A DNA stretch of 64,000 nucleotides from Phycisphaerae bacterium (GTDB taxonomy: Bacteria > Planctomycetota > Phycisphaerae > UBA1845): NCBI GenBank assembly GCA_963666835.2, contig CAXXGO010000003.1:160001-224000 (forward strand). The letters are read 5' to 3'. Positions 27,449 to 45,285 of this stretch are shown here, piece after piece (within the stretch, counting starts at the first letter, position 1; each line of letters starts with the position of its first letter). The notes beneath the pieces are model-generated. The model saw only the letters and a list, made by a program, of their open reading frames with translations, had not been told where the DNA came from and did no database searches. The position numbers and the translations under genes are program-made.

Positions 27449-28490
27449 CCTGATTCTCTACTTGACTCCGGCGGCTAAGTACGGTATTTGTTAGGGCTTA
27501 CGATTTCATGGTTCATGGAGGAGGTCGGCCATGTCTGACGAGATTCGCCCGAAGCATCCCGTGCCCAAGATCTTGGATGTAGCGTCGTTTATGCGTCGCT
27601 TCGGAGATGATGCGGCCTGTGCCGCGTATCTGCGAAAGGCTCGCTGGGGACCGAACCTGGAACGGTTCGTCTGCCCGGACTGTGGGCATAACCGCGGATG
27701 GTGGCTCCCGACCCGAGGGCTCGTCGAGTGCCGGGAGTGTCACCATCAGACCTCACCGACGGCCGGCACGGTGTTTCACGGTGCCCGCGTGCCGCTCTGG
27801 AAGTGGTTCTGGGCTATGTATCAAGAGGCTCACTCGAAGAAAGGCCTCGCGGCCACGGCGTTGGCCAAGCAGATCCAGGTCTGCTACCAGACTGCCTGGA
27901 TGATGCTGCAGAAGCTCCGCGAGGCCATGCGTCAACGATGCCAACGTTATGTCCTGCAGGGACTTGTGGAGGTCGACGAGACATACGTTGGCGGCCGGGA
28001 ACCGGGTCGGCCGGGGCGTGGAGTGGAGAAGAAGGTCCCAGTGGGAGTGGCCGTCGAGCTTGACGAGAACGACCGGCCTAAGCGAATCGCCATTCAGGGA
28101 CTGAAAAGCGTCGACGCTCGAAGCCTGAGGGGTTTCACGACGAGACACGTAGCGAAGGGCTCATGTCTCCGGACGGACGGATGGGGAAGTTACGTTTCAG
28201 TGGCCAAGGCCGGGTACGAGCACGAGGCAATCGTGACGGGCGGTGGGAAGAATGCGGTTCAAATTTTCCCCTGGGTTCACACCTTCATCGGCAACCTGAA
28301 GCGGATGATTGTGGGCACATATCACAGCGTTTCGCCCAAACACCTCGACCGTTACCTGGCCGCGTTCACCTATCGGGCCAACCGTCGCTGGATGGAAGCA
28401 AAACTCTTCGATCGCCTTGTTATCGCGGCCGTAGCTGCCAAACCACTGACATTAAAGGAGTTAACCACCGGAGCGAGGTAGAGAATCAGG
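27449..28490 (+). mobile_element. IS1595-family insertion sequence, 1042 bp
   Basis: Terminal inverted repeats CCTGATTCTCTAC(TTGA/CTCG)CTCCGG(C/T)GG(C/T)TAA; 8-bp target duplication TCGCGAGA at 27441-27448 and 28491-28498. Confidence 0.95.
27531..28481 (+). CDS. IS1595-family transposase
   Basis: Zn ribbon CPDC...CREC, TAGTVF, VEVDETYVGG, RTDGWGSY, GTYHSVSPKHLDRYL. Confidence 0.95.
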   Translation: MSDEIRPKHPVPKILDVASFMRRFGDDAACAAYLRKARWGPNLERFVCPDCGHNRGWWLPTRGLVECRECHHQTSPTAGTVFHGARVPLWKWFWAMYQEAHSKKGLAATALAKQIQVCYQTAWMMLQKLREAMRQRCQRYVLQGLVEVDETYVGGREPGRPGRGVEKKVPVGVAVELDENDRPKRIAIQGLKSVDARSLRGFTTRHVAKGSCLRTDGWGSYVSVAKAGYEHEAIVTGGGKNAVQIFPWVHTFIGNLKRMIVGTYHSVSPKHLDRYLAAFTYRANRRWMEAKLFDRLVIAAVAAKPLTLKELTTGAR

Positions 28491-29451
28491 TCGCGAGAAT
28501 GAGCTGCATGGTATCCCCCAAGTAGATTCGATCCCGCACGGTTGCTAACAGAAGGTTGTCGGTATCGCCATTGGATTCAGGGGTTGCAGATAGCAGGTCG
28601 ACGGTTTCCGGCCGAATCGACAGCAGGCACGGTCCTGATGTACGCCCGCCTTCCGGAGCCGAAGCGCAGAGTGTGCCCAGATCCGTATCCAAGATGCGAA
28701 GACCATTACGGGACGATCGGATAGTGGCCTTCAGGATGTTTGTCTCACCCAGAAAGTCGGCGACTTGGGCACTGCGCGGGCGTTGATACAATTCAGTTGG
28801 TGGACCCAATTGGGTAATGCGACCGGATTGCATTACCGCAATGCGATCGGCCATCGACAGGGCCTCCTTCTGGTCGTGCGTGACGTATACAGTGGTCAGC
28901 CCGAACTCCTTGCATAACGTACGAATCTCTGCGCGCATGTCCAAGCGAAGTTTGGCGTCCAGATTGCTCAACGGTTCGTCGAGCAGAAGGCAATGAGGGC
29001 GGATCACAAGGGCGCGAGCCAAGGCTACGCGCTGTTGCTGTCCACCGGACAACTGGTTGGGTTTCCGGCCCTCATAGCCGCCCATCTTCACCATCTCCAG
29101 GGCTTCGGTGACGCGCCGGGCGCGGAGCGCCCCGCGCACCTTGCGAACTGATAGACCGAACCCCACATTGTCCGCCACGGTGAGATGCGGCCAGAGGGCA
29201 TAGTTCTGAAAGACCATGCCCGTGTTTCGACGGCGTGGTGGCAGAAAGGTGACGTCATCTCCCCCGAAAAAGACCCGGCCGTAATCCGGAGAACAGAAGC
29301 CTGCGATAGTGCGCAGCAGGGTGGTCTTGCCGCAACCGGAGGGCCCGAGCAGGAAAAATAGCTCACCGGCGTCGATCGAGACACTTACGTCTTGCAGGGC
29401 GTGGGTATTCCCGAAACACTTGGTGACACTCTTGATGTCGATTGACCGCAC
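28486..29451 (-). pseudogene. ABC transporter ATPase (AfuC/FbpC/PotA-like), C-terminally truncated by IS1595
   Basis: [42 protein letters not shown]; the current stop lies inside the IS end. Confidence 0.88.
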
Positions 29452-29602
29452 GGGTTCCTCCTGTCAGGGTGCAAGAACGCAGGTTTCGTGGCTGCGTTGA
29501 GTAACAGGCGGGGAAGATCATCTGCCCAGCGGTCTCTTGCGAAAAAGCCGATTCCGCAGGGGGGTGCCAAGATGCCGTCCCCAGCTTCTTCCCCAGGATC
29601 CT

Positions 29603-31324
29603 CTACACTCTGAACAACGCTCCTAGTCGTTTTCCCAAGGCGAGCGACGCTATCACGATGGTAGTAATCAAGACGAGCATACCGATCACCCCGAGAGCCG
29701 ACGCGGTCTCCGTCCCGGATTCCGGAATATCCGCTAGAGACCAGATGGCTTTCGTCATTGGGTAGTACTCGCGGTCGAACGCTAGAATCAAACTGTCGGA
29801 TACTTCCAACATGGAACGGCTGAAAACCAGCAGGCCGCCGGCGATTAGATTCGGTGCCAACAGGGGGGCAGTAATCCGCCCAAGGGTCCGTATGGGGCCG
29901 GCACCTAGGTTCATCGCGGCTTCTTCCAACGCCACGGAAGTCTGCTCCAAGCCGGCCGCGCAGGCTCTTACGACAAAAGGAATCCGGCGCACGCAATAAG
30001 CGATGACCAACAGCGGCATCGGGCTCCGGGTGAGCGGGTTAAGGAACCCGACCGGGGAGTCGCCTTGGGTTAGCGCGAAGTAACCAAAGGCCATGACTAA
30101 ACCGGGAACCGCCAAGGGCAGCATGGCCAAGCCATCCAGAATGGCAGTGAGAGGCGTACGTCGTCGGACGGCCAGGTATGCAATGGCGAATCCGAAGAAC
30201 ATGGCCCCGACCGTTGCGATGATCGAGTAGGTGACGCTGTTGACTATGCTCCGGGCGGCTACCCCCTTGCTGGGGTCGCCGAAACTCAGAATGTCGCTGA
30301 TTATGCCGACGTAGTGGCGCGAAGTCAGGTGTCCGGGAGCGAGTTCGAGCATACCGGTGGAAGTTATGCTACCCAGGATAACGCCCAGGTGCGGGACTAC
30401 GGCCGCGAGGAAGACGACACCGAAGGGCGCGGCCAACAGAAGGCTGCCTGCTGACCCCAAGCGCCGGAGCGGCGTGGATACGGTCGCTTTGGGGGCCATC
30501 GCCCCGGAAGGGCGTCCCAGGACCCACTTGCCCAGCGCGAAAATCAATACGCTTATCGTGAGCAGCACGACTACCAGAGCATACGCATCGCCCTGTGGGT
30601 TGGTTGTCTGAAGCTGGTCGAAGACCTGAACTGCGGTCACCGCGCGAAACCCTACGATCAAAGGTGTGCCCAGCTCGGTGAATGCCCAGATAAACACTAT
30701 TGTGGATCCGGCAAACACACCCGGCCGAGCCAGCGGAAGCGTCACCCGCCAAAGACGCCGGAAGAAACCGGCACCGAGGTTCTGAGCGGCTTCTTCCAGC
30801 GATGGATCGAGATTGGCGAGGGTCGCTTGGATGTTGAGGAATGTAATCGGGTAGAGATACAGCGTTTCCAGCACAATGCACGAAATGAAGGGCGAAGCCA
30901 GCCAGTCGATGGGATTCGCAGGGTCGATGAGGCCCAACGCCGCCAGCAGGCTGTTGAGGCCGCCGTTACGCGAGAGCATCCCCTTCAAACCCAACGCCCC
31001 GACAAACGGCGGCAGAATCAGCGGCACCTGAATGAGGGCCAGCCACCAGCGCTTTCCGGCGAAATCGAAATTCTCCGAAATCAACGCCAGCGGAAACGAG
31101 ATCAGTAGACACAAGATCGTAGTGCAAGACGCCAGGACCACGGAGTTGACCAGCCCCTCGCGGTAGAGCGGGTCCTCGAAGACCATCGAAAGCCAGAACA
31201 TGCTGAAACGGCCGTCTTCGTCGAAGCCGGCGCGTACGACTGCGAATATCGGAGCTAGCAGGACCAGACCCAAGGCAAGAATGAGGAGAAGAGTCAGCAG
31301 GGAACTCAGTTGCCACCGCTGCAT
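29603..31324 (-). CDS. ABC transporter double-domain permease (AfuB/FbpB-like)
   Basis: Two EAA loops (LEEAAQNLGA, LEEAAMNLGA) and multiple TM segments. Confidence 0.9.
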   Translation of the reverse strand: MQRWQLSSLLTLLLILALGLVLLAPIFAVVRAGFDEDGRFSMFWLSMVFEDPLYREGLVNSVVLASCTTILCLLISFPLALISENFDFAGKRWWLALIQVPLILPPFVGALGLKGMLSRNGGLNSLLAALGLIDPANPIDWLASPFISCIVLETLYLYPITFLNIQATLANLDPSLEEAAQNLGAGFFRRLWRVTLPLARPGVFAGSTIVFIWAFTELGTPLIVGFRAVTAVQVFDQLQTTNPQGDAYALVVVLLTISVLIFALGKWVLGRPSGAMAPKATVSTPLRRLGSAGSLLLAAPFGVVFLAAVVPHLGVILGSITSTGMLELAPGHLTSRHYVGIISDILSFGDPSKGVAARSIVNSVTYSIIATVGAMFFGFAIAYLAVRRRTPLTAILDGLAMLPLAVPGLVMAFGYFALTQGDSPVGFLNPLTRSPMPLLVIAYCVRRIPFVVRACAAGLEQTSVALEEAAMNLGAGPIRTLGRITAPLLAPNLIAGGLLVFSRSMLEVSDSLILAFDREYYPMTKAIWSLADIPESGTETASALGVIGMLVLITTIVIASLALGKRLGALFRV

Positions 31325-31383: not shown

Positions 31384-34300
31384 TCACGGTTGAAGTCTCA
31401 GGCGGAATCGCGCCGCGACCGGGTTGTGATCCGATCCCAGGCTGTCGACGCTTCCGGTGCGGATGGCGTACGACCCGGGAACGTACTGCTTAGCCAGGGC
31501 GGGCGAAGATAGAATGAAGTCGATCATAGATCGATACGGCTCGCGATTGTAGGTGATACGATCTGCCTTCGGTATCTCCTCGGCAAAGCACCGAAGCGCG
31601 CGCGGACCGTTTCCCACGAGGGTCTGCAAAGTGTTACTATCCCAGGTGTCGTTGAAGTCGCCACAGAGCGCAATAGCGGCGTCCGGATCCCGCTGCAGGC
31701 GGTCATCAAGAATCTCGCGGATCTTCTTCGCCTCTGCTACGCGGATGGGCTCGGCGTACGCGCGGCCGTCATAGTTGCTCTTCAGGTGTACCACCCAGAC
31801 CTCGAACGGAGCTGCTCTCTCCGGCTCCAGGCGAACACCCAGCAGATCCCGGCCGAAGCGGCGCAGTGATCCGCTCGCATCCGGAAACTCCAGGTGCCGG
31901 TACGACGTTACCGGCCCGACGGGCACGCGCGATACAAGAGCCGCGTCGATTCCTCGGGCGTCGTTGCTCTCGAAGTGGACGACATGACTGTAACCCATAT
32001 CCGACAGGAAGACCTCCAGGAAACGTTCCAGGTACCCCCGGCTTTCCACTTCCTGGAGAGCCAGTACGTCGGCGTTAATGTCCCGGATCGCCTGGGCGAC
32101 TCGCTCGAGCTCACGGCGCGGTTTGGTCGGAGTGGAGTCGTCGTTGCGGTACGGATCATCGACGTCATCGAAGAGATTCAGGATGTTGAAGGTCGCCACC
32201 GTGATGGTATCGCCCAACTGGACCTCGTGATCCGCAAGCGGAGGCACCGACGGCAAATCCTGGAGAAACTCGATCTGGTCGGGCGTCGTCACGTAAATTT
32301 GCGGCCGGCCCCCGTAGGTGCTAACCCCGCCGCGAACGCGGACCAACTTGCCCTGGTACATCTCGCGAAGCGGCATTGGGAAATTGGCTGCGAACTGTTG
32401 GAAGACCACCACGGAGAACCCTTCGGGCCCTGAGCTGGGGCCGAAGTTCAGCAAGGTCACGCGCCCTTTGGTCAGAACCTCGCGGATCTGGCCATGTACG
32501 AAGGCCGTACGCCCGATGATTTTGCCGGCGTCCTGCCAGCTTACGTGCGGTCGTCCCTCGTCCGGACCGATCGCGGGCTGGTCCGCGAAGGCCCCGGCCG
32601 TAAGGAGGGTCCAGGCCAGGAACGTCCCCGTAAGGACCCGAACGCTTTGCGTCCTCTGTCCTGCCTTTGGGCGAACGAACGCATGCGACCGGCCGTTACG
32701 AATAATAATCACGGTGCACGTCGCGACCATACCCAGAAGCATGACGACAAGGCCCCATGTGGAGACCGTGGGCACGGTGGGGGCGCACTCGTCGGGAATC
32801 CCGTCTCCATTGGTATCCAACGACGTTCCGGATTCGATATCGCACTCGTCGGGGATCCCGTTAGTGTTGCAGTCTTCGCTTGTTGAGGCGTCCAGGTCGC
32901 AGAGATCCTCAATACCGTTACCGTTGCAGTCGTCAGTCAAAACCTGCGTGCAAGTACCCTCGGGGGTGCAGTACGGGCTGCCATTGCACCAGTCGCCGTC
33001 TTCGCAGTGGCTGTTCTGCAGGCAATCCACGCATCGATCGTCGCTCTCTCGGCAGTAGGGTGTCAGGCACGGCGATTCTCCGGCTTGGCAATCCAACTCC
33101 GGGTCGCACGTCTCCAATCCGTCGCAGAACAACCCATTATCGCAAAGATCATCATCCGGAGTATTCTCGCAAACGGGTGCTACGCAGGTGTCTACGGTGC
33201 AGGCGACGAAGTCATCGCAGTCTTCGTCGTTTTCGCATCCGGCAGTACTGAGAATGAAATCGGCGATGACGGGACGATGATCGGAGGCCATCTGGCTTGC
33301 CCCGCTGGGCCAGAAGTACCCGTCGAGTTCGGACGGGAGCGAATCGGCGGGGGTGCTGCCGCCGGTGTAGAAAACGAAGGCTTGCCGCAGGACAGCGATA
33401 CTGTCCTGCCAAGCGATGTAATCCAGTTTGTTGGTGCTTCCGCTACCGGAGCCCTGGGTACGGCGATAACCGTTGAAGTAGTCTACTGCCGTGTCATAGG
33501 TCATGTCCGAGCGGTCGCGATCGGTCCCGTCGGGAGCCCCGGTGATCTCCGCCATGGTCAACCAATCGGCCGGCCCTTTTCGTCCGTTAGTCTGCTCATC
33601 CTCGTTCCAATCACCGCCGATGATCACGGCTGTCTCGGCTCCTAGAATCTGTTGGGCCGCGGGACTGTCCCAGATCTTGCCGTGCGGGTCCGGGATTCCC
33701 TCACCTGCCCCGTTGTACCAGTAGTCAATCACGTATGCGACTCGCTGAGCAGCTTCCAGACGCTGGGCCAAGTCGTCGGACGATCCCCCGGACTTAAGAT
33801 GAGCGTTGCCGACCACGACATCGCCGACATAGGTTTCATCCGGAAGGTCGATCTCGGCGAACTGGAATCCCCGGATACCGCCGTCACCAGGCTCGGTCAC
33901 ATACTCATCAGCAAAAACGGTAGGGATGTCGGCAAGAGTGTCTTTCGTATCCCCGTTCAGGTCGGCAAAGGGATACCGGCTGAGGATTGCATTGCGGTTG
34001 TATCCGTCCGATTCGCTGGGCACGAAGATATATGGTAAATCGTAATCCGGCGCGAATAACTGTACCCACGATTCCACAGTTGGATTGCCCGTTATGAACG
34101 GGTCCTCCCCGCCGTAGAGGAACAGCTCCAGCACCGTGGTAAGCTCCGCAACGGAGTCAAGGCAGCCGCTGCAGTCGTTGTCCCCCGCCTCCTGAATGAT
34201 GAGCACATCCGGACGCATTCCCGCCACGATCCGGACCAGAGCATCCCAGGTAGAATTCGCGGTCTTGCTGATCTCGGTGCGAATGTCGTCCTCTACGTTC

Positions 34301-34428
34301 CAGGTCATTACCCGCAAGTCAGTAGTCTCGGACTTCGACCAGTCCCCGTTGGGTGGGTCCCAGGCGTTTACGTCAAGTGCGATAGTGCCGAACGCGATAA
34401 GCGCGACAACCGTTATGACCTTGTTCAT
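31384..34428 (-). CDS. Secreted protein with two endonuclease/exonuclease/phosphatase (EEP) domains, an internal IPTL-CTERM-like segment, a second signal peptide and an OB-fold-like domain
   Basis: EEP1: MTWNV, IQE, HLKS, GDWN, LDY, SDHRPV. Then Cys/Asp-rich repeats and VPTVSTWG+TM+R. EEP2: TFNILN, LQEVE, HLKS, GDFND, IDF, SDHNPV. Confidence 0.85.
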
Positions 34429-34653: not shown

Positions 34654-36741
34654 CTAGATCAACTGCCGTTTGCGGCCACGCATGACCACTGTTCCAACCG
34701 CCATCACGAGGAGAGTCATGACGATCATTCCCCACTCGGATACGGCGGGCACGTTGCCCGATCCGCCCGGAGCTACGGACCCGATATACAACAGCACGTT
34801 GTAGTCTTGGTCCTGTTCGCCCGTTGCTCCGGTGCAAGGCTGCTCGAAGTCACCGTCCTGGTCCGCGTCATAGACGATCTCTGCGGCCAACACGATTCCA
34901 CCAAGGGTGCGCGGATCCGCCGGTTCGATAGTCGCCGGATCAAGGCCCAGGTGGGCGCTCTCGCTGATATTCTGTGACCACATCGTTTCGGACGCGACCG
35001 AGTTGGAGTCCGCGATACCCACGAACGTCACCATGTAGTCGCGGTCGGAGTTCTGTCCATGGAAGACATCGCCGAGTTTGAAGACCAGTTCCAGCTCGTA
35101 CCCGAAGGTAGCAGGATCATAGACGGCTCGTAACAGGCCGGTGGTTAAGTCGCTGGGGTCACCGAAGAGCTCGATGGCCGAGAAGAACCAGACATTGCCG
35201 GCTGAGTCGATCATGGGCGCCGAAACGCTCGGGCCGAACGGCGTGCTCTCCGTAGTCACCTTATCCAGGCCGACCATCCGCCCGATTATGCTTCCGCCCG
35301 GACCGTCCAAGATTGGCTTGCCGCCTCCCGACGTTCCCTCGGTGCCATCGGAGTAGCCGGCCATAGTCCAAGACTGCGTTCCGGTAGTGCAATCCACCCG
35401 AGCTACCGCGATGTAGTTAACCGGCCAGTCAGTCCCACCGTCCGCGGGGTGGTCGACTTGGGCGGCTGCGAGCAGGTTTCCAGCCGGATCGACCCCGAGA
35501 GCAATCTGACCGTTACCACCCCGGTAAGCCACCTGGCTATGGTAGTGATCAAACTCGTTTGTCCCGGCGATGTTGGTTGCCCCGGTGGTCGGGTCGGTGA
35601 TTACTGCTGGAAGCCGCAGCGCGAGTGTTCCAGTGACGTTCCCAGACGCCCCCAGACCCCAGAGGTTCATGAAGATACCCAAGGCGCTGGGATCATCAGT
35701 CGCGGCGTCGCGCCCAATAATCGCGGCGATGCCGTGCGTACTGCTCAGTTGGCTGCAATTGGCGCTTGTGTAGCTGATATTGCCGCGGGTCGAAAGCACG
35801 CCTGTGCCCCAGTGAGTCTGATCGCAGGTAACCGCACCGAAGTCGGTTCCCCGGCAGTACTGTCCATCGAAGTTGACGCCGATGTAGAGCGGAGCGCCAC
35901 CGACGATCGGACCGGGGATCATTCCGGGGGTGCTGTGCACCGTGGCGGAGTTTCGGACGACCCAGTCGGTCACCGCCGAGTCGAACTGGCCACCGGGATA
36001 GTCGTTGCTGATGACATTCAACGATGTCGTATTGCGGTTCGCGGCATCGACCCGGAACACGTTATCAGCGGTTAGGGCGGTCAGCCCACAACCGGCGGAA
36101 GTGCCGTACGCGTCGGCGCGAAGGTGGAGTACTCCCGCAGGATCGATTGACCCGGTTCCGAACCCGGACAGGTTTGATGTGTTATCGCACGAGTTCGTCG
36201 CGGCAACGATTCGTGATACGTACAACCGCGTCGGCGCCGAAGGTTCATACTGCACCAATCCGGCGATCGTGCCGTTGTAGTTGGCCTCATTATCCGTGGT
36301 GGAGTACTCGGCGAAATCCACCGCGAACTTGTTCCCGAGACGCCCGGTCAGATCGATCTGCGTAGTGGGGGCGTCGTTCTGGACGGTATTGACCCCGTAG
36401 CCCGGGGCGTTCCAATAGTCAAACGACCCATCGAGAGTCTGTCCGAACAGTTGAACTCGACTTATAGCTTGAGCACTCATCAAGCTGCCGAAGTAATCGG
36501 AGCTGGTCTTGCTGGACTTGACCAGCGGGGCGATTCCAAACGCGGTACCCCACGACGTATTGAAAGCCGTCAGATCCACGACATAGTCATTCCGCTGTTC
36601 CGTGGTGTCCCAGGGATCTAATGCATCGCCCGGCAGGCAGGCGGTGTTCGAAACACTGTCCGTGGCGAACGCCGGGGATGCCAGAATCAGAATCAGTGCT
36701 AACCCTCTCAAACGACTGCCCATGTCTCCGTACCCAATCAT
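34654..36741 (-). CDS. Secreted IPTL-CTERM surface protein of unknown function
   Basis: AAAGGAG RBS, signal peptide (SPAFA|T), C-terminus VPAVSEWGMIVMTLLVMAVGTVVMRGRKR. Confidence 0.85.
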   Translation of the reverse strand: MIGYGDMGSRLRGLALILILASPAFATDSVSNTACLPGDALDPWDTTEQRNDYVVDLTAFNTSWGTAFGIAPLVKSSKTSSDYFGSLMSAQAISRVQLFGQTLDGSFDYWNAPGYGVNTVQNDAPTTQIDLTGRLGNKFAVDFAEYSTTDNEANYNGTIAGLVQYEPSAPTRLYVSRIVAATNSCDNTSNLSGFGTGSIDPAGVLHLRADAYGTSAGCGLTALTADNVFRVDAANRNTTSLNVISNDYPGGQFDSAVTDWVVRNSATVHSTPGMIPGPIVGGAPLYIGVNFDGQYCRGTDFGAVTCDQTHWGTGVLSTRGNISYTSANCSQLSSTHGIAAIIGRDAATDDPSALGIFMNLWGLGASGNVTGTLALRLPAVITDPTTGATNIAGTNEFDHYHSQVAYRGGNGQIALGVDPAGNLLAAAQVDHPADGGTDWPVNYIAVARVDCTTGTQSWTMAGYSDGTEGTSGGGKPILDGPGGSIIGRMVGLDKVTTESTPFGPSVSAPMIDSAGNVWFFSAIELFGDPSDLTTGLLRAVYDPATFGYELELVFKLGDVFHGQNSDRDYMVTFVGIADSNSVASETMWSQNISESAHLGLDPATIEPADPRTLGGIVLAAEIVYDADQDGDFEQPCTGATGEQDQDYNVLLYIGSVAPGGSGNVPAVSEWGMIVMTLLVMAVGTVVMRGRKRQLI

Positions 36742-36898
36742 GCCTGATGCTCCTTTCCGTTGTCCATGGTTTTGTTCAAAGACGGCCGGCCTCTCGAATC
36801 GAGAAGTCCGCCGCCAGACCCGTTCGATAAACTCCATACCCGTTAGGCGTCTATGCTCTGCGTCACCGGGCTGTATACCTGCCTCGCTCGCCCGCGGC

Positions 36899-37984
36899 CT
36901 ACGGTATTTCCCACTCCTGCTCAACTGCGGTCATGCCTTCGAGCGCGTTCTCGACCACCGCGCCCCGCGGATACCAATACTCGATCTTCCGCGAATCGCG
37001 ATCGTTCAGCAGCTCGACGTGGCCGTCGAAAAACAAGATGTTCATCAAGCCGGCGTTGTCTTTGGCGTGTCCAGTACCACTACTGTGAACACTATGCCGG
37101 TACGACAGTGCCAGATTCTTGCCGTTACTGGGGGAACCACCCGCACCTGAGCCGGCCCCGTCCCAATTCAACGAGTCCTTGTGTACGCCGTAAGCAGTGG
37201 ATCCTCGCCACCACGCTCCGGATGACGTAAACGACCCGAAGTAGTTCGGGAACGGGCTAACGTCATGATCCAGTAAGAGGTTGTCCGGGAGATAGCGGGT
37301 CCCGTCAGCCAGAAAGACCTTCCTTCCCGGAGTCCCGATGCGATTGAGGCGAGAGACATAGTCGGTAACGCGGACATTATCCCAATCATCCGGTGCCGCC
37401 TTGGCGACGACCTTCATTTGCGGAAAGAACTCCAAGGGGCTGAGCTCTCTGCCCGCCTGGCGCTCGCCCCAATACTGAAAATAGGCGGGCATGAGGTAAC
37501 TGACGGCCGCCCACGAGCCGACCTTCTCGAACTCGGATTTCTCGGATCCGCTGCCGTTGTAATAGGCGGCCGAGTTATACGTCTTTGCGCAGGGGCAGGC
37601 ATAGTAGTTCATCAAGTGGGCGAACCGGTCTGCGCGCCTGACCGGGAGGTTCGGCTCATCCAGAATCGGCGACAGCCAATCGAAGGACTGCACCGGTAGG
37701 AAAGACTCCTGCAAGGCCTCCCCGTCCATTCCCTTACGCGCCCGCAGCGCTACTCCCGACGTATTCAAACCGGGCAGCCAGTCGTTATTGACGTAGGTAT
37801 AGTCCGCAAGACCCGTCGCGAAGCCGTGAAGATGGGCTCCGCACACCACTTCCTTGGCGTGGTCCCGGGCCTTTCGCAGGCTAGGCAGCAGGATCGCCAT
37901 CAGGGCAGCGATGATCGCAATGACGACCAGTAATTCGATAATTGTGAACGCGCTCGAGACGTTTCTTGATCGGCGCGCAAACAA
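36899..37984 (-). CDS. Prepilin-type N-terminal cleavage/methylation protein with H-X9-DG-type C-terminus
   Basis: AFTIIELLVVIAIIAALMAILLPSLRKAR..AK...C; C-terminal YRH...NILFFDGHV. Start uncertain (TTG at 37984; the ORF track extends to 38101). Confidence 0.88.
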   Translation of the reverse strand: MFARRSRNVSSAFTIIELLVVIAIIAALMAILLPSLRKARDHAKEVVCGAHLHGFATGLADYTYVNNDWLPGLNTSGVALRARKGMDGEALQESFLPVQSFDWLSPILDEPNLPVRRADRFAHLMNYYACPCAKTYNSAAYYNGSGSEKSEFEKVGSWAAVSYLMPAYFQYWGERQAGRELSPLEFFPQMKVVAKAAPDDWDNVRVTDYVSRLNRIGTPGRKVFLADGTRYLPDNLLLDHDVSPFPNYFGSFTSSGAWWRGSTAYGVHKDSLNWDGAGSGAGGSPSNGKNLALSYRHSVHSSGTGHAKDNAGLMNILFFDGHVELLNDRDSRKIEYWYPRGAVVENALEGMTAVEQEWEIP

Positions 37985-37991
37985 CTGGATG

Positions 37992-38342
37992 CTAACGGCT
38001 GTTTCTGATCGCGAGGGTCCCGAGGTCAACATACTGGTTCTTATCCTTGAGATCTTGGACGGTAGTACGATAGCGATCCGGAACGTACCGAGCGCCATCA
38101 CGGGTTTCGAAGGGGATCAACGTGCGTTCGCCCGTTTCGGGGTTCTCCATTGGGAGCATGTTCACGCGTTCACGCGGGATGTTAAAAGTCTCCCCGGTAG
38201 CAGCGCAGACTAATGGCATCCTGTTGGGTAGCTCGAGCGGCGACGAATGAACGAAGGACCAACCGATCACCACGGCAATACCGACTACCGCGATCGCCAG
38301 CAGCAGGTTACGTTGAGTTTGGATGAAGTCGAACAATAACAA
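37992..38342 (-). CDS. Small single-TM hypothetical protein
   Basis: AAAGGA RBS, N-terminal hydrophobic helix, motifs LVCAATGETF and ENPETGERTL. Confidence 0.65.
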   Translation of the reverse strand: MLLFDFIQTQRNLLLAIAVVGIAVVIGWSFVHSSPLELPNRMPLVCAATGETFNIPRERVNMLPMENPETGERTLIPFETRDGARYVPDRYRTTVQDLKDKNQYVDLGTLAIRNSR

Positions 38343-38363: not shown

Positions 38364-39907
38364 GCCTCCTCAGCAGAATTTGTGGTGGATTTTCGGTTCG
38401 GGTAGTTTGCCAAGTGCGTGATATAGGGCGACTTCCGCGGCCTTTAGCTCTCGAAAGCCGTAGGCTCTTCTGATGGTCAGTTTGACCTTGTTGTTGAGTC
38501 CCTCCACGATCCCGGACGAATACTGCTTTCTCGCCGCAAACCAATTCAAGATCAGGTTCTCATGAGCACGCAGACTGCGCGCGACTTTCTTAATCGGTTC
38601 AAGCCGGCTGCGCATGGCCCGTTGAATCCACCCCTTCAGAAATCGTCCTGCCCAGTGGTATGACTCGTAATCCCAGAGCGCCTGGAAGCTGTCCTTGAGC
38701 AGGTAGGCCCGGATGCTCTTGAGGTTGTATCGCATCAGTTCGCTGAGCTTGGCTCCCTGTTTGTTCGTCAGGTTCGCGGGACGCTTCAGCAGGCACCACC
38801 GGCTGTGCTTCAGCACCGGGTCGAAACCTTCGCGTGCCAGTTCCTTCGCCTCGGCCGCCCGGACCTCGTCAACCGCCTTGTTCAGCCTGGCCACGATGTG
38901 GAACCGATCCAGAATGTGAATCGCGTCGGGGATCTTCTTCCGGATCACGCGCAGGTAGGGCTGCCACATATCGCTGCAGACGTAACGGATTCCGGCTGAT
39001 CGCGGCTTGCCCATCATGCGAAAGAAACGCAGGAAGCTCTTGGCGGTGCGATCCTGCCCGATCCACAGCAGACGCCGGCACGAGTTCTCAATCTGGTAGA
39101 CCAACGTCAGATACCGATGTCCTTTTTGGAACTGAATCTCATCGACGCCGATGGCGGCGACGTTGTCCAAATCCCGGTGTTTCAGGCCGTATTCGACGAC
39201 CCAGGCAACCGAGCGGTAGACCGTGTCCCAGCTGGTCTTGAACACCGTGGCCACCTCTTTCCAACTCAGGCGGCGCGCCCACCGAGCGAGGAACAGCGCG
39301 TGAGCGTTGGTGATTCGCTTCTTACCGTCCGCCCAAGGCAACAGTTCGACCTTCACGCCGCAATCCTCGCACTTGACGCGGCGGGGTGCGTAGAGCATCA
39401 CAACCGGCAAGGCCCACAGCGGAATGAACGAGAACGATCGTCTCGGCATTCGGTCGTAGGCCTTGCCTCGGCGGCCGCAACCCGAGCAGAACGGACGGCT
39501 GCCGCGTCGCGGCCGGATTTCGACTTCCAGCGTCATGGGATCCGAATCACGGAATCGAACGTCTCCGTAGACGAAGCCCTTGACTTTGTGGACGCGATTG
39601 AGGATGGTCTTCACTTGCATCGTTCGTTTTCTCCGGGTTGATGTCTTCGCAAACACCAATTTACCGGATTCTCGAACGATGCACTTCTTTTGTCCCGGAC
39701 ACAAGCCGGCCTCTGCCCGTTCCGTCACGTAAACCAAACGCTGCCTCCAGGCCCCTGTAGCTCCGTCACCCTCGGCGTCGGTCTCACCCGACTAGGGCCG
39801 ACGCCGAGGGGGACGGTGCGGAAGGGGCCGCCCCGGACAGCTCCCGAGCCGGAGGCCGAGGATCACCTCAACCTATGAAATCCTTCCACAGATTCGGCGG
39901 AAGAACC
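38364..39907 (-). mobile_element. ISL3-family insertion sequence, 1544 bp
   Basis: Imperfect terminal IRs (GCCTCCTCAGCAGAATTTGTGG versus the reverse complement of CCACAGATTCGGCGGAAGAACC); 8-bp target duplication TCTTTGTT at 38356-38363 and 39908-39915. Confidence 0.92.
38370..39620 (-). CDS. ISL3-family transposase
   Basis: Zn finger CSGC...CEDC, IGVDE, VCSDMWQPY, LDRFHI, VEGLNNKVK...RRAYGFR. Confidence 0.95.
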   Translation of the reverse strand: MQVKTILNRVHKVKGFVYGDVRFRDSDPMTLEVEIRPRRGSRPFCSGCGRRGKAYDRMPRRSFSFIPLWALPVVMLYAPRRVKCEDCGVKVELLPWADGKKRITNAHALFLARWARRLSWKEVATVFKTSWDTVYRSVAWVVEYGLKHRDLDNVAAIGVDEIQFQKGHRYLTLVYQIENSCRRLLWIGQDRTAKSFLRFFRMMGKPRSAGIRYVCSDMWQPYLRVIRKKIPDAIHILDRFHIVARLNKAVDEVRAAEAKELAREGFDPVLKHSRWCLLKRPANLTNKQGAKLSELMRYNLKSIRAYLLKDSFQALWDYESYHWAGRFLKGWIQRAMRSRLEPIKKVARSLRAHENLILNWFAARKQYSSGIVEGLNNKVKLTIRRAYGFRELKAAEVALYHALGKLPEPKIHHKFC

Positions 39908-42141: not shown

Positions 42142-42180
42142 CTTAATCCGGTTTTAACTGCGCCTTAGTTGTATCTTTAC
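42142..42180 (+). promoter_or_regulatory. Pho-box-like array upstream of the lamin-tail protein
   Basis: CTTAAT-N5-TTTAAC-N5-CTTAGT-N5-CTTTAC, exact 11-bp period. Confidence 0.7.
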
Positions 42181-42300
42181 GGCCCGCGATCGAAGATCTT
42201 GCGCGTTGCGAAAAAAGCGGCCTGGTGGCGGCTTGAGCGTAGTATCCAGGAGCGGAGCGGACAAATGGCTGAAGAACAGAGGAAAGGAGCACGGGGAATC

Positions 42301-45285
42301 ATGAGCGTTAATCGCGGAATTCGCGGGCTTTCGGGGAGGATCCTGCTAAGTGTGATCCTGGCCGGGGCATTGCTGGCACCGGCCTACGCGCAGGTGGCAA
42401 TCAACGAGGTCCGGATCGATCAGACGAGCACGGATAACGATGAGTATATGGAGCTTGCAGGCGGGAGCGGCACGGCGCTCGATGGGCTGACCTACTTGGT
42501 AATCGGCGATGGCAGCGGCGGAAGCGGCGTTATTGAGGCCGTGGTCGACCTCACCGGATTCGCCATCCCGACTGGTGGGTTCTTCGTTGCCGCGGAATCG
42601 ACCTTCACGGCGGGTACCGCCGACATGGTGACCAGTCTCAATTTCGAAAACAGCGACAACGTCACGCACATGGTCGTAAGCGGGTTTAGCGGAGCCGATG
42701 GCGACGACCTGGACACGGACGATGACGGCGTGCTCGACGTTACCCCTTGGACTGCGATCGTCGATTGTGTTGCCTTGATCGAGACGGTCGGCTCGGGCGA
42801 TTTGGTGTACTGCAGCGAGACCGTCGGACCGGACGGCTCCTATGTGCCCGGACACGCGTATCGGTGTCCGGATCAGAGCGGCAGTTGGGTGATTGGTTCC
42901 TTCGATCTGGGTGTTGACGATACGCCCGGGGCTGCGAATGCCTGTGTAGTCCCGACCGGAGCCTGCTGTGATGAGACCAGCGGCGATTGCACTGAGGATG
43001 TGACCGAGGCAAGCTGCACCGGAGCCGGCAACCGCTACGGTGGTGACGACTCGACTTGTGCTACTATCGACCCGCCGTGTGTGGGGATTGCCACGGGGGC
43101 CTGTTGCGTGGCCCACGCATGTATCGACGACCTTACCGAGGCCGATTGCACTCCTCAGGGCGGCGTGTTCCAGGGCGGCGGAAGCACTTGCGCTTCCACA
43201 ACCTGCCCGACCCCGCCGTCGGTCATCATCAGTGAGATCATGTACAACCCCAACAGTAACGAAGGCAGCAGCCCGGATTACATCAATCTCGTCGAATGGG
43301 TCGAAATCTACAACAATGGAGACACAACTGTCGACATCACCGGTTGGGGATTGATGGATGAGGACCCCAGCGGCGATTGGCTGGCAGCGGGCCCCATTCC
43401 GGCGGCTACGATTGCTGCAGGTGAGGCCGTTGTGCTTATCCCCGGCCCGGATACTCAGGGAGGGGCATCGCCTGGTCTGAGCGTTGCCGATTTCCAGGCC
43501 GCGTGGGGTGCGGGCTATCAGGTGGTCCCCATCGATAACTGGGGCGACAACCTCTACAGCTTGTCCAACAGTCCCGACCTGACCAGTGAGATCGTGACTC
43601 TGACGGACGCATCGGGTGTGGCCGTCGACGTCGCCAACTACGACGACTCCTACCCCACGGACAACGGCTGGCCCAATCCCTTCCCCGGGGGCCCGAGCAT
43701 CTACGTTAAGTGTTTCGCCCTCGATGGTGCTCAGAACGACCTGGGCACCAGTTGGGATCTGTCGACGGACGGCGTCGACGGGGCCTTCATCGTAACGCCC
43801 ACCGCCGTCTTTGACGGAGTGGACGTCGGTTCGCCTGGGTTCGTCTTCGAGTGTTCCGGGTTGGTCGGGGCATGTTGCGACTGGGCCACCTACACTTGTA
43901 CTGACGACGTGGCAGCCGTCGATTGCCAGGGAGACGATCAGGAATGGACTGCAAGCACGCTATGCTCGGAACTCGATCCGCCGTGCCTGCCGCCGGTGTA
44001 CACCGGAGCGTGCTGCTTCGCGGGTTTCTGTGCCGATGATCTCGAGCAGGCCGATTGCGAGGCCGGCGGCGGTGTATACCAGGGCGATGACAGTCTCTGC
44101 AGCGGCGTCACCTGTCCGGCAGGTCCCGCGGTTGTGATCAACGAGGTCCGGATCGATCAGTCCTCGGCGGATGACGACGAGTACTTCGAGCTGGCCGGCG
44201 ATGCCGGGGCGTCCTTGGATGGGCTCACCTATCTCGTCATCGGTGACGGCGACGGGGATGGCGGGACGGTCGAGGCGGTGATTCCGCTGACTGGTTCGGC
44301 AATCCCGGGTAGCGGCTTCTTCGTGGCGGCCGAGAGCACTTTCACGCTGGGTACCGCGGACTTGGTCACGAATATCAACTTCGAAAACAGCGACAACGTG
44401 ACTCACCTGCTGGTTGCCGGGTTCAGCGGCGCGGACGGTGATGATCTCGATACCGATGACGATTGTGTGTTGGACGTCATGCCGTGGGCCGGGGAGTATG
44501 ATCGGGTTGCGTTGGTTGAGACGGACAACCCGCCCGTGGACACTGAATGCCACTATGGTCCGGCGCAAGTCGGTCCGGACGGCACCTATGTGCCGGGGCA
44601 CGCCTACCGCTGTGCGGATCTTTCCGGTACCTGGCGCCTTGGCGGCTTCACCCTGGGTGAAGATGATACGCCCGGCGCCGCGAACGCTTGTGGCGCTTGC
44701 TGTGCGGACGGGGCTTGCAGCGAAGGCTCCTGCGGCGAGTGCGCCGGTGCCTTCCAGGGCACGGGGTCGGTTTGCACCACCGAGCAGGCCTGCTGTCTGC
44801 CCGATGGCACCTGCACGATGGCGGATGTTCTCTGTTGCGAAAACGAGCTCGGCGGTACTCCGCAGGGTGACGGTTCCGAGTGCGGCGGGATGGAAGCGTG
44901 CTGCCTGGGCGACGGCACTTGCACGATGGCCGACGCTCTGTGCTGCGTCAACGAGCTTGGCGGCACCCCGCAAGGTCCGAGCAGCATCTGCGAAGGTGAT
45001 ACCGATTCCGACGGCCTTGACGGAGCCTGTGGCGACGAATGCCCGCTTGACGCCGACAAGTACGTGCCCGGCCTGTGTGGATGCGGGACTCCCGACGTCG
45101 ACACCGACGGCGACGGAGTGCCGGACTGCAACGACTTGTGCCCGGGTGTGGATGACGACGCTTTTGGTCCTGGATGTGCCGATGCGATTCCGACGGTTTC
45201 GCAGTGGGGTCTCGTAGTCCTGGCCCTTTTGCTGCTGACCGTGAGTAAGGTCCGTTTTGCCGGTCGTTCTACAACGGCTGCGTAG
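42301..45285 (+). CDS. Secreted lamin-tail-domain-like, Cys-rich IPTL-CTERM protein
   Basis: AAAGGAG RBS, signal peptide (PAYA|Q), three INE/ISE...E.VE/EL...(T/S)PG modules, GACC repeats, C-terminus IPTVSQWGLVVLALLLLTVSKVRF. Confidence 0.85.
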   Translation: MSVNRGIRGLSGRILLSVILAGALLAPAYAQVAINEVRIDQTSTDNDEYMELAGGSGTALDGLTYLVIGDGSGGSGVIEAVVDLTGFAIPTGGFFVAAESTFTAGTADMVTSLNFENSDNVTHMVVSGFSGADGDDLDTDDDGVLDVTPWTAIVDCVALIETVGSGDLVYCSETVGPDGSYVPGHAYRCPDQSGSWVIGSFDLGVDDTPGAANACVVPTGACCDETSGDCTEDVTEASCTGAGNRYGGDDSTCATIDPPCVGIATGACCVAHACIDDLTEADCTPQGGVFQGGGSTCASTTCPTPPSVIISEIMYNPNSNEGSSPDYINLVEWVEIYNNGDTTVDITGWGLMDEDPSGDWLAAGPIPAATIAAGEAVVLIPGPDTQGGASPGLSVADFQAAWGAGYQVVPIDNWGDNLYSLSNSPDLTSEIVTLTDASGVAVDVANYDDSYPTDNGWPNPFPGGPSIYVKCFALDGAQNDLGTSWDLSTDGVDGAFIVTPTAVFDGVDVGSPGFVFECSGLVGACCDWATYTCTDDVAAVDCQGDDQEWTASTLCSELDPPCLPPVYTGACCFAGFCADDLEQADCEAGGGVYQGDDSLCSGVTCPAGPAVVINEVRIDQSSADDDEYFELAGDAGASLDGLTYLVIGDGDGDGGTVEAVIPLTGSAIPGSGFFVAAESTFTLGTADLVTNINFENSDNVTHLLVAGFSGADGDDLDTDDDCVLDVMPWAGEYDRVALVETDNPPVDTECHYGPAQVGPDGTYVPGHAYRCADLSGTWRLGGFTLGEDDTPGAANACGACCADGACSEGSCGECAGAFQGTGSVCTTEQACCLPDGTCTMADVLCCENELGGTPQGDGSECGGMEACCLGDGTCTMADALCCVNELGGTPQGPSSICEGDTDSDGLDGACGDECPLDADKYVPGLCGCGTPDVDTDGDGVPDCNDLCPGVDDDAFGPGCADAIPTVSQWGLVVLALLLLTVSKVRFAGRSTTAA

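Follow-up and report, generated by a model that had tools for sequence, protein, structure and literature searches.

Canonical IPTL-CTERM proteins (TIGR04174, PF18203) end in a signature motif followed by a membrane helix and a basic cluster. We take IPTLxxWG tails of this type to be linked to exosortase H (XrtH), in part because of NCBI protein names. The curated NCBIfam family NF033207 (midcut-by-XrtH, 175 positions) describes a small protein with an IPTL-type tripartite signal in mid-protein, and profile positions ~19-66 align with the tails of the genome studied here. An earlier note on this DNA had described IPTL-CTERM as a C-terminal sorting domain with no known processing enzyme. This background has to be corrected: NCBIfam holds both TIGR04177 (exosortase H) and NF033207, so curated models exist both for a candidate processing enzyme and for an exception in mid-protein. 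Our literature searches found no paper on the midcut-by-XrtH family and, among the papers listed, none in which the terms XrtH, IPTLxxWG or midcut have this meaning; IPTL-CTERM occurred in one paper, on an S-layer protein. For internal signal peptides in bacteria, the papers found were mostly on viral polyproteins.

Internal sorting signals have also been described in other groups. HVO_0405 of Haloferax volcanii is a fusion of two formerly independent genes with a central sorting signal, and ArtA-dependent cleavage there was shown experimentally (PMC7157517). MXAN_5598 of Myxococcus xanthus has an internal sorting motif that is ascribed to the fusion of two genes; its counterparts TraA and TraB are adjacent ORFs, and its N-terminal part is proposed to be processed (Guo, Haft and Wall, mBio 2025; PMC11980579). 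HVO_0405 is archaeal with a PGF-type signal, and MXAN_5598 has a MYXO-CTERM signal with a myxosortase (a CPBP protease), not an exosortase, its processing being a proposal. One bacterial ORF can also give two proteins by way of an internal signal peptide. The fbcH gene of Bradyrhizobium japonicum encodes a cytochrome b/c1 precursor that is cut at an internal signal sequence; a literature search for fbcH found no paper with this name. HVO_0405 itself is called a Tat substrate in the title of a 2017 paper by Abdul Halim et al. (cited in PMC11980579).

We found an ORF that joins two exported enzymes through an internal IPTL-type sorting signal and a second signal peptide. It lies in a 64,000-nucleotide stretch of Phycisphaerae DNA (the window; all coordinates are window positions). 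Like NF033207, it has an IPTL-type tripartite signal in mid-protein; however, its signal stands between two full enzymes, and after it comes a predicted Sec signal peptide kept from the second gene. Like HVO_0405, it is a two-gene fusion that places a signal of the archaeosortase/exosortase family centrally. Here, the exosortase candidates are XrtH-like and score below threshold, and we infer cleavage from the sequence. It shares with MXAN_5598 an internal C-terminal-type sorting motif ascribed to fusion of otherwise adjacent genes. Like fbcH, it would yield two proteins from one ORF through an internal signal peptide, although fbcH has no sorting tail and encodes subunits of a respiratory complex. 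The fused layout is real, but it is of an already catalogued kind.

The fused ORF (31384..34428, minus strand, as are all of its features below) consists of 1014 codons and a stop in a single uninterrupted frame. It encodes, in order, a signal peptide, a first endonuclease/exonuclease/phosphatase enzyme (EEP1), a Cys-rich stalk, the motif VPTVSTWG, a membrane helix, a basic loop, a second signal-peptide-like helix ending in AFA before D616, an OB-like barrel and a second enzyme (EEP2). The earlier note had given the same 1014-residue frame and the same order, and had placed V552 at nt 32775 and D616 at 32583. ORF calls bear out the frame, both positions are correct, and the order agrees with profile scans, hydropathy and AlphaFold (AF2) models.

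The first half is an exported enzyme on a stalk. Its N-terminal signal peptide (residues 1-22, 34363..34428), predicted by eye, ends in VNA before W. EEP1 follows (residues 23-395, 33244..34362). When residues 1-551 were scanned alone, PF03372 matched over 41-384 with 38.5 bits (cut-off 24.5). The AF2 model of this half had a pLDDT of 85.5, and its top Foldseek matches were the EEP-fold PDB structures 4ruw, TDP2 and DNase1L3. None of the 57 invariant columns of alignment A2 is missing. The stalk (residues 396-551, 32776..33243) is recognized from its sequence by [15 protein letters not shown] repeats. Dozens of paralogous copies of this stalk occur in the same genome and in relatives.

The second half begins with an OB-like beta-barrel (approximately residues 616-725, 32254..32583). 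The barrel had no direct match in a Pfam scan of the fused protein; the label comes from how the strands are arranged in the AF2 model and from PF01336/PF13742 matches precomputed for the homologues P0124-P0126. The EEP2 catalytic domain (residues 741-1014, 31387..32208) was identified with PF03372, PF19580, Foldseek and a PDB profile match. Scanned alone, residues 585-1014 scored 60.6 bits with PF03372 (cut-off 24.5) and 81.9 bits with PF19580. The AF2 model of this half had a pLDDT of 90.6; Foldseek matched it to LINE-1 EN, nocturnin, TDP2 and DNase I, and a PDB profile search returned 9sf9 at 1.8e-11. Single-sequence PDB searches with the EEP1 half and with the EEP2 half gave no match. EEP2 has 29 of 29 invariant columns of alignment A1. 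By score above the cut-off and by fold, each half belongs to the EEP superfamily (PF03372), and both enzyme domains are intact by sequence. The ORF does not belong to the ExeM/NucH extracellular endonucleases (NF033681, 50.4 bits with 300 required). A predicted complex of EEP1 with EEP2 scored 0.01 against a mark of 0.32, which gives no support for binding and is not evidence either way.

The junction keeps both membrane signals. A hydropathy profile had two hydrophobic peaks, at residues 558-576 and 598-615. The first belongs to an IPTL-CTERM-like tripartite signal (residues 552-580, 32689..32775), identified by motif, hydropathy and sub-threshold profile matches and made up of VPTVSTWG, the membrane helix and the first basic residues. 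VPTVSTWG (residues 552-559) has the IPTLSxWG-type signature and fits the pattern common to 56 terminal tails of this genome, and as in the canonical family the helix is followed by basic residues. The signal departs from the canonical tail in location, with 463 residues after the motif, and in score, since the internal tail alone is below the curated cut-offs (12.7 versus 20.5 bits for TIGR04174; 12.3 versus 20.8 for PF18203). It is an XrtH-type signal in mid-protein, as in the midcut-by-XrtH proteins, but the junction segment is not a member of NF033207 (17.3 bits, cut-off 45; the best score in the genome is 27 bits). The basic loop (residues 581-597, 32638..32688) contains no start codon. 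Residues 577-597 include six Arg or Lys (R577, R580, R586, K588, R592 and R597) and no acidic residue.

The second peak is the core of a signal peptide that was apparently kept from a former EEP2 gene (residues 598-615, 32584..32637; AFA before D616), as judged by hydropathy and by alignment to split orthologues. By eye, the internal segment shows a basic n-region before a hydrophobic core, with small residues in positions -3 and -1, and it aligns with the signal peptides of those orthologues. The earlier note had read this segment as a signal peptide with an AxA site. We find it to be a true homologue of the free-standing EEP2 signal peptides, whose predicted cleavage sites align with AFA before D; the predicted site at 615/616 rests on the -3/-1 rule and this alignment. 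The out-in-out topology proposed in the same note fits the hydropathy and the positive loop. None of the start codons ATG, GTG and TTG occurs in frame from codon 577 to codon 603, in agreement with the earlier statement that no in-frame ATG separates the two helices; the first helix itself contains ATG 563, ATG 567 and GTG 573 in frame. A purine-rich remnant resembling a Shine-Dalgarno sequence precedes codon 596 (GTT), and this region is probably where the old EEP2 start was.

The motif at the junction is not a chance match. We searched the whole genome in six frames with a regular expression and judged helices by eye. Of 61 matches, 56 had a hydrophobic tail and then a stop 29-64 residues on, 3 (the fused EEP ORF included) were internal with a helix, and 2 had no helix. 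Terminal tails of this type are also seen in the window, on the upstream neighbour (34654..36924, minus strand) and on a lamin-tail-domain protein (42169..45285, plus strand), both from ORF calls and profile scans. The motif is 32 residues before the stop in each, as expected from the earlier description of it as C-terminal in both neighbours. Their scores are at or just around the IPTL-CTERM cut-offs (19.5 and 20.8 bits for PF18203, cut-off 20.8; 20.8 and 20.3 for TIGR04174, cut-off 20.5).

Two further ORFs of the genome have the same read-through junction. In one, an M14 carboxypeptidase runs on into an ankyrin-repeat protein; the orthologues of the two parts are encoded separately but next to each other, the ankyrin gene having its own signal peptide, and in the fusion the ankyrin part keeps its own ATG. 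In the other, a repeat protein is fused to an LVIVD propeller. A frame in G014 that appeared to be a second carboxypeptidase-ankyrin fusion was rejected, as the ankyrin gene there proved to be a distinct frame of 367 aa that carries a signal peptide of its own.

The genome also encodes candidates for the sorting enzyme. Three XrtH-like exosortase genes scored 78.9, 75.8 and 64.5 bits by hmmscan, with a best six-frame score of 81.1, below the TIGR04177 cut-off of 86. Each of the three scores above the cut-off for the exosortase/archaeosortase signature TIGR04178 (27.2-46.9 bits versus 23), and one is directly downstream of a gene with an IPTL tail.

In relatives, the two enzymes are usually encoded by separate genes. 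We found EEP1 and EEP2 adjacent and on the same strand in ten relatives (G009, G004, G017, G016, G024, G375, G329, G385, L035 and L070). The distance from the stop of gene 1 to the start of gene 2 was 35-73 nt in nine pairs and ~260 nt in the tenth (G016). In all ten, EEP2 begins with a basic-hydrophobic signal peptide and then a conserved mature start, mostly P-I-x(2-3)-E-G/A-x-P, which lines up with [15 protein letters not shown] of the fused protein. Several have a Shine-Dalgarno-like sequence before the EEP2 ATG. G385 looks like a pre-fusion state. Its gene 1 ends with VPTVSQWG, a helix, a basic tail and a stop, and the ATG and signal peptide of gene 2 follow ~40 nt on. It falls within the same four-row group of the concatenated tree (support 86/88).

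A single further fused protein was found, P0003 (1038 aa, 99% coverage, same order). Its junction has a shorter basic loop and a site with VHA before E, and its enzyme domains are 62% identical to those of the window protein over 751 columns. In the concatenated tree P0003 is the best-tree sister of the window protein (support 77/72; 76% of 200 bootstrap trees). The EEP2-alone tree did not recover this relation and placed split G024 nearest, so the trees point weakly to a sister relation. There was no fused form among 71 further EEP2 loci (5 were too short to tell) or among 29 other genomes of the class with EEP2. Some longer proteins were examined as fusions and rejected. P0124-P0126, P0133 and P0135 have extra OB domains and no upstream enzyme; long frames in G323 (842 aa) and G152 (794 aa) have upstream parts unlike EEP1, with an in-frame Met and a signal peptide just before EEP2. 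With two fused proteins, ten split adjacent pairs and none fused elsewhere, the fused state therefore shows no sign of being favoured.

These comparisons bear on two statements in the earlier note. It had offered a recent accidental fusion of two genes as the alternative to a polyprotein. The comparison shows an origin from two genes, but the fusion need not be recent, given the identity of P0003 and its place in the best tree. It had also held that its reading would fail if all close homologues were two genes. With ten split pairs, no fused form among the 71 loci and one other fused protein, this is nearly the case, P0003 being the exception.

Our results are most consistent with a lineage-specific fusion of a conserved adjacent Phycisphaerae gene pair, in which a sorting tail and an old signal peptide are resolved by two cuts (probability approximately 0.6). 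At the level of sequence, the comparisons show the fusion itself and its origin from two genes. We infer that the chain is cut into two exported proteins. The product of gene 1 would have been an EEP enzyme anchored at the surface, with an IPTL-CTERM (XrtH-type) sorting tail at its end, and that of gene 2 a secreted, nuclease-like enzyme of OB and EEP domains with its own Sec signal peptide. Loss of the gene 1 stop codon and of the gene 2 start codon would have put the tail in frame with the old signal peptide. The N-terminal signal peptide would then export EEP1 and the stalk, the sorting helix would halt transfer with the basic loop remaining in the cytoplasm, and the old signal peptide would re-start translocation. 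Signal peptidase I would cleave after AFA and release EEP2, and an XrtH-like exosortase would cleave at the VPTVSTWG signal and anchor EEP1. The leftover would be only a small two-helix hairpin.

The fused ORF is real and not an assembly error. An artefact, with a stop or frameshift in the linker of the true genome, might be imagined because the genome is a 7-contig assembly in which one exosortase gene elsewhere appears frameshifted at its 5' end. We consider this very improbable. Logan contigs from two studies cross the junction, which the earlier note had singled out for a check of reads, with no gap, indel or stop. They agree without gaps across 32381-34143; one contig has 0 differences, and the same synonymous change (V675, GTC to GTG) is the only difference in each of the other two. 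One of the runs may itself be the source of the window. P0003, from a different assembly, is fused in the same way. We also considered and rejected a one-base error giving TAA just after the first helix; gene 2 would then have no ATG, GTG or TTG start, and the independent contigs agree with each other. A search of runs found no RNA run containing the stretch.

Given an intact frame, the two enzymes might still be made separately, or the chain might stay in one piece. In the former case, EEP2 would start inside the first helix (at ATG 563, ATG 567 or GTG 573) with a long basic n-region before the old signal peptide, and the full-length chain would be a minor or unstable by-product. These in-frame codons precede the second hydrophobic core by 25-35 codons, the first helix of P0003 also has Met residues, and the second gene of the carboxypeptidase-ankyrin fusion retains its own ATG. 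However, no Shine-Dalgarno-like sequence precedes codons 563, 567 or 573, unlike the ATG of several split orthologues, and the codon at the most plausible old start is now GTT. Since the junction has no stop, ribosomes translating gene 1 would read across it regardless. We regard separate synthesis as unlikely. Somewhat less likely still is a chain that is uncut or cut at one site only, leaving a two-helix hairpin in the cytoplasmic membrane with both enzymes outside, or a fused form that is unstable and partly lost, which would make the fusion a mildly harmful accident. The rarity of the fused form among relatives and the low scores of the internal tail fit this account, and uncleaved HVO_0405 was reported to be unstable (PMC7157517). 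Against it, the second helix is only moderately hydrophobic (peak 1.42, versus 2.67 at residues 566-570 in the first) and ends in small-x-small like signal peptides. This small-x-small site is kept in both fused proteins, and the two enzyme domains of the window ORF retain every invariant residue.

If the fused chain is resolved by two cuts, as we favour, loss of the stop codon would cost little, since the cuts would give back the products of the two former genes. This low cost would explain the recurrence of such fusions. The read-through type accounts for 3 of the 59 helix-bearing IPTL-type tails in this genome, and the EEP fusion may have persisted through ~38% divergence of the enzyme domains. 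We suggest tentatively, at a little less than even odds, that a sorting tail with a signal peptide after it forms a self-resolving junction, cleaved by the sorting enzyme on one side and by signal peptidase on the other, that stop loss between adjacent exported genes is nearly neutral, and that secreted 'polyproteins' arise repeatedly in this way.

The EEP locus provides a natural series of ten split pairs, one of them resembling the pre-fusion state, and two fused forms, and the second signal peptide can be aligned with its free-standing counterparts across the whole series. The prediction is that one chain gives a tailless EEP1 and an EEP2 that starts at D616. The locus bears on whether internal signals are also accepted by exosortase-type enzymes of bacteria, as they are by archaeosortase A of Haloferax. 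In annotation, ORFs of this kind should be neither labelled as single multi-domain enzymes nor set aside as assembly errors. If our proposal is correct, the self-resolving junction would be a general route by which one bacterial gene gives two exported proteins.

The fused open reading frame (31384..34428, reverse strand) is a single frame of 1014 codons encoding two enzymes of the endonuclease/exonuclease/phosphatase (EEP) fold. By eye, residues 1-22 form a signal peptide. The first enzyme, EEP1, lies within residues 1-551 (PF03372, 38.5 bits on a separate scan of those residues) and is followed by a Cys-rich stalk and a VPTVSTWG motif starting at nt 32775 (reverse strand). A strongly hydrophobic first helix comes directly after the motif, then a loop that has six Arg/Lys and lacks acidic residues, then a second, moderately hydrophobic segment ending in AFA before D616 (nt 32583); the earlier note had placed both the motif and D616 correctly. 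Between D616 and the second enzyme, EEP2 (PF03372, 60.6 bits; PF19580, 81.9 bits), is a beta-rich domain of ~110 residues. We label this predicted barrel OB from the strand pattern of the model and because homologues have precomputed Pfam hits to OB families. In the EEP2 relatives P0124-P0126, P0133 and P0135, EEP is preceded by two or three OB-like domains in tandem.

AlphaFold models were confident for both halves (pLDDT 85.5 for EEP1, 90.6 for EEP2), and both matched enzymes of the EEP fold, among them TDP2, DNase I, nocturnin and LINE-1 endonuclease. These matches do not define a substrate. The best family-level hint for EEP2 is a sub-threshold match to the ExeM/NucH extracellular nucleases (50.4 bits vs a cut-off of 300). 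Every invariant alignment column is kept in both enzyme domains, which argues against decay. Directly downstream on the same strand (28486-31324) are genes for a double-permease ABC transporter and an ABC ATPase; a link to uptake of EEP1/EEP2 products is possible. Nearby, also on the reverse strand, a 455-aa ORF (38370-39737) is transposase-like by eye, being Cys-rich at the N-terminus and basic over a long region. A 400-aa ORF (36899-38101, reverse strand) has a prepilin-type N-terminal helix (FTIIELLVV...), a feature typical of DUF1559, a large family in planctomycetes.

We found that the uninterrupted frame, as claimed from the sequence earlier, also holds in assembled contigs. The stretch is present in five public runs from two studies, and contigs from four of the five were compared with the window; the window may derive from one of these runs, and rare variants may go unseen in contigs. 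A 2230-base contig from study P1 spans 31914-34143 with no differences. In study P2, a 35-kb contig spans the entire fused ORF and a 6.4-kb contig spans 32381-34500, both without a gap and with the same single, synonymous difference. Contigs of both studies thus cross the linker (32580-32780), where a stop or frameshift had been a concern, without a gap. Codons 577-603 contain no in-frame ATG, GTG or TTG. ATG 563, ATG 567 and GTG 573 sit within the first helix, leaving no in-frame ATG between the two hydrophobic helices, as had been noted. A one-base error hiding an in-frame TAA just after the first helix was rejected, as EEP2 would then have no start codon. We take the frame as real. About 8 nt upstream of codon 596, now GTT, is a purine-rich stretch; we infer that the two may be remnants of the ribosome-binding site and start of a formerly separate EEP2 gene.

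The host is a member of the Phycisphaerae, judged by the source names of homologues. EEP1 and EEP2 are encoded by adjacent, same-strand, separate genes (gene 1 and gene 2) in 10 relatives (G009, G004, G017, G016, G024, G375, G329, G385, L035 and L070). Gene 1 closes with anchoring modules of various kinds, and gene 2 starts 35-73 nt after its stop in nine of the ten (~260 nt in G016). Gene 2 opens with its own basic-hydrophobic signal peptide, and the conserved mature start after it aligns with the window's [15 protein letters not shown]; the second hydrophobic segment is therefore the old gene 2 signal peptide. G385 probably resembles the state before fusion: its gene 1 has a terminal VPTVSQWG-helix-basic tail followed by a stop, and the gene 2 ATG lies ~40 nt downstream. 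We conclude that two genes for exported enzymes have truly fused in this ORF.

The same genome contains other such junctions. A six-frame census of the tail motif, with helices judged by eye, found the motif 61 times, with 56 of the matches in terminal tails, 3 internal and the other 2 lacking a helix. One internal match is in a 985-aa ORF (contig C1:194642-197596, reverse strand, as assembled; L107 1140..4097) that begins with a signal peptide and an M14 carboxypeptidase and continues through a VPTVSEWG tail and a basic loop to ankyrin repeats; at its junction the second gene's in-frame ATG and signal peptide are retained. In relatives, the carboxypeptidase and ankyrin genes are adjacent but separate, the latter with its own signal peptide. 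By its sequence, this ORF is a second read-through fusion. In a 1554-aa ORF (C1:489882-494543, forward strand, as assembled; L106 1383..6047), for which few orthologues were found, a repeat protein leads into an LVIVD beta-propeller protein by way of an internal VPAVSTWG tail, the helix, a basic loop and a segment that resembles a signal peptide and ends in ASA|D; we read this as one more fusion of the kind, the third in the genome. Copies of the Cys-rich stalk module are present in dozens of large ORFs, both here and in relatives (e.g., C5:81074-81352 and C5:87681-87959 in this genome), and some of them are identical tandem duplicates. Tails and stalks here look like shuffled modules.

The fused EEP form is rare. 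Among 5.8 billion clustered proteins, the only other full-length fusion found was P0003 (1038 aa), in which the domains come in the same order, the loop is shorter and the site reads VHA|E; no other representative among 1.84 billion searched had EEP2 behind EEP1 in one chain. EEP2 was present (E <= 1e-60) in 30 of 401 genomes of the class, fused in the window's genome alone. None of 71 further EEP2 loci (32 metagenomic, 39 genomic) had the fused form, 5 being too short to tell. P0123 (734 aa), a database homologue, carries an ATP-grasp domain in the same frame ahead of its EEP2 signal peptide; either a further junction lacking a stop or a gene called too long could account for this.

When EEP2 was used by itself (54 rows), the tree put both fused proteins in a small group of poor resolution, with the split G024 as the row nearest to the window's protein. 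With EEP1 and EEP2 concatenated (10 rows, 762 columns), the two were sisters (support 77/72), and in that alignment they are reciprocal best matches (62% identity). The best tree favours one fairly old fusion common to both, a reading that is not secure. The alternative raised earlier, a recent accidental fusion of two genes, stands as to the two genes, and the event may not be recent.

We propose a processing route for the chain on the basis of homology to the split pairs and of the positive-inside and -3/-1 rules. The first signal peptide would export EEP1 and its stalk, the sorting helix would stop transfer, and the basic loop would remain on the inner side. The old gene 2 signal peptide would then re-open translocation, signal peptidase I would release EEP2 at D616, and an exosortase would sever EEP1 from its tail. 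Alternatively, EEP2 might have its own initiation at the start codons within the first helix, or the chain might be cut only in part or not at all.

Likely sorting enzymes for the tail are the genome's three small exosortase-family proteins (C6:2370426-2370806, reverse strand; C6:1047572-1048027 and C1:1743279-1743797, forward strand; L108-L111). Exosortase H (XrtH, TIGR04177) is the best or near-best match for each (64.5-78.9 bits, below the cut-off of 86), and the exosortase-family signature model accepts all three. One of them sits immediately 3' of an IPTL-tail gene. Behind each comes a gene for a membrane protein of 203-248 aa; these proteins are paralogous to one another and had no NCBIfam match. 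The C6:2370426-2370806 gene appears frameshifted near its 5' end.

A mid-protein sorting tail is not new in kind. Guo, Haft and Wall (PMC11980579) note an internal MYXO-CTERM in MXAN_5598 and state, citing two papers, that C-terminal tags function in mid-protein. The archaeal HVO_0405 of Haloferax volcanii, itself a product of the fusion of two once-independent genes, is reported to be cleaved at its central sorting signal in an ArtA-dependent manner (PMC7157517). The NCBIfam profile NF033207 ('midcut-by-XrtH') aligns with tails of the window's genome, but the fused protein falls below its cut-off. What this locus adds is an evolutionary series and the recurrence of such fusions within one genome. 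The EEP fusion was very probably tolerated because two existing proteases could resolve its junction.
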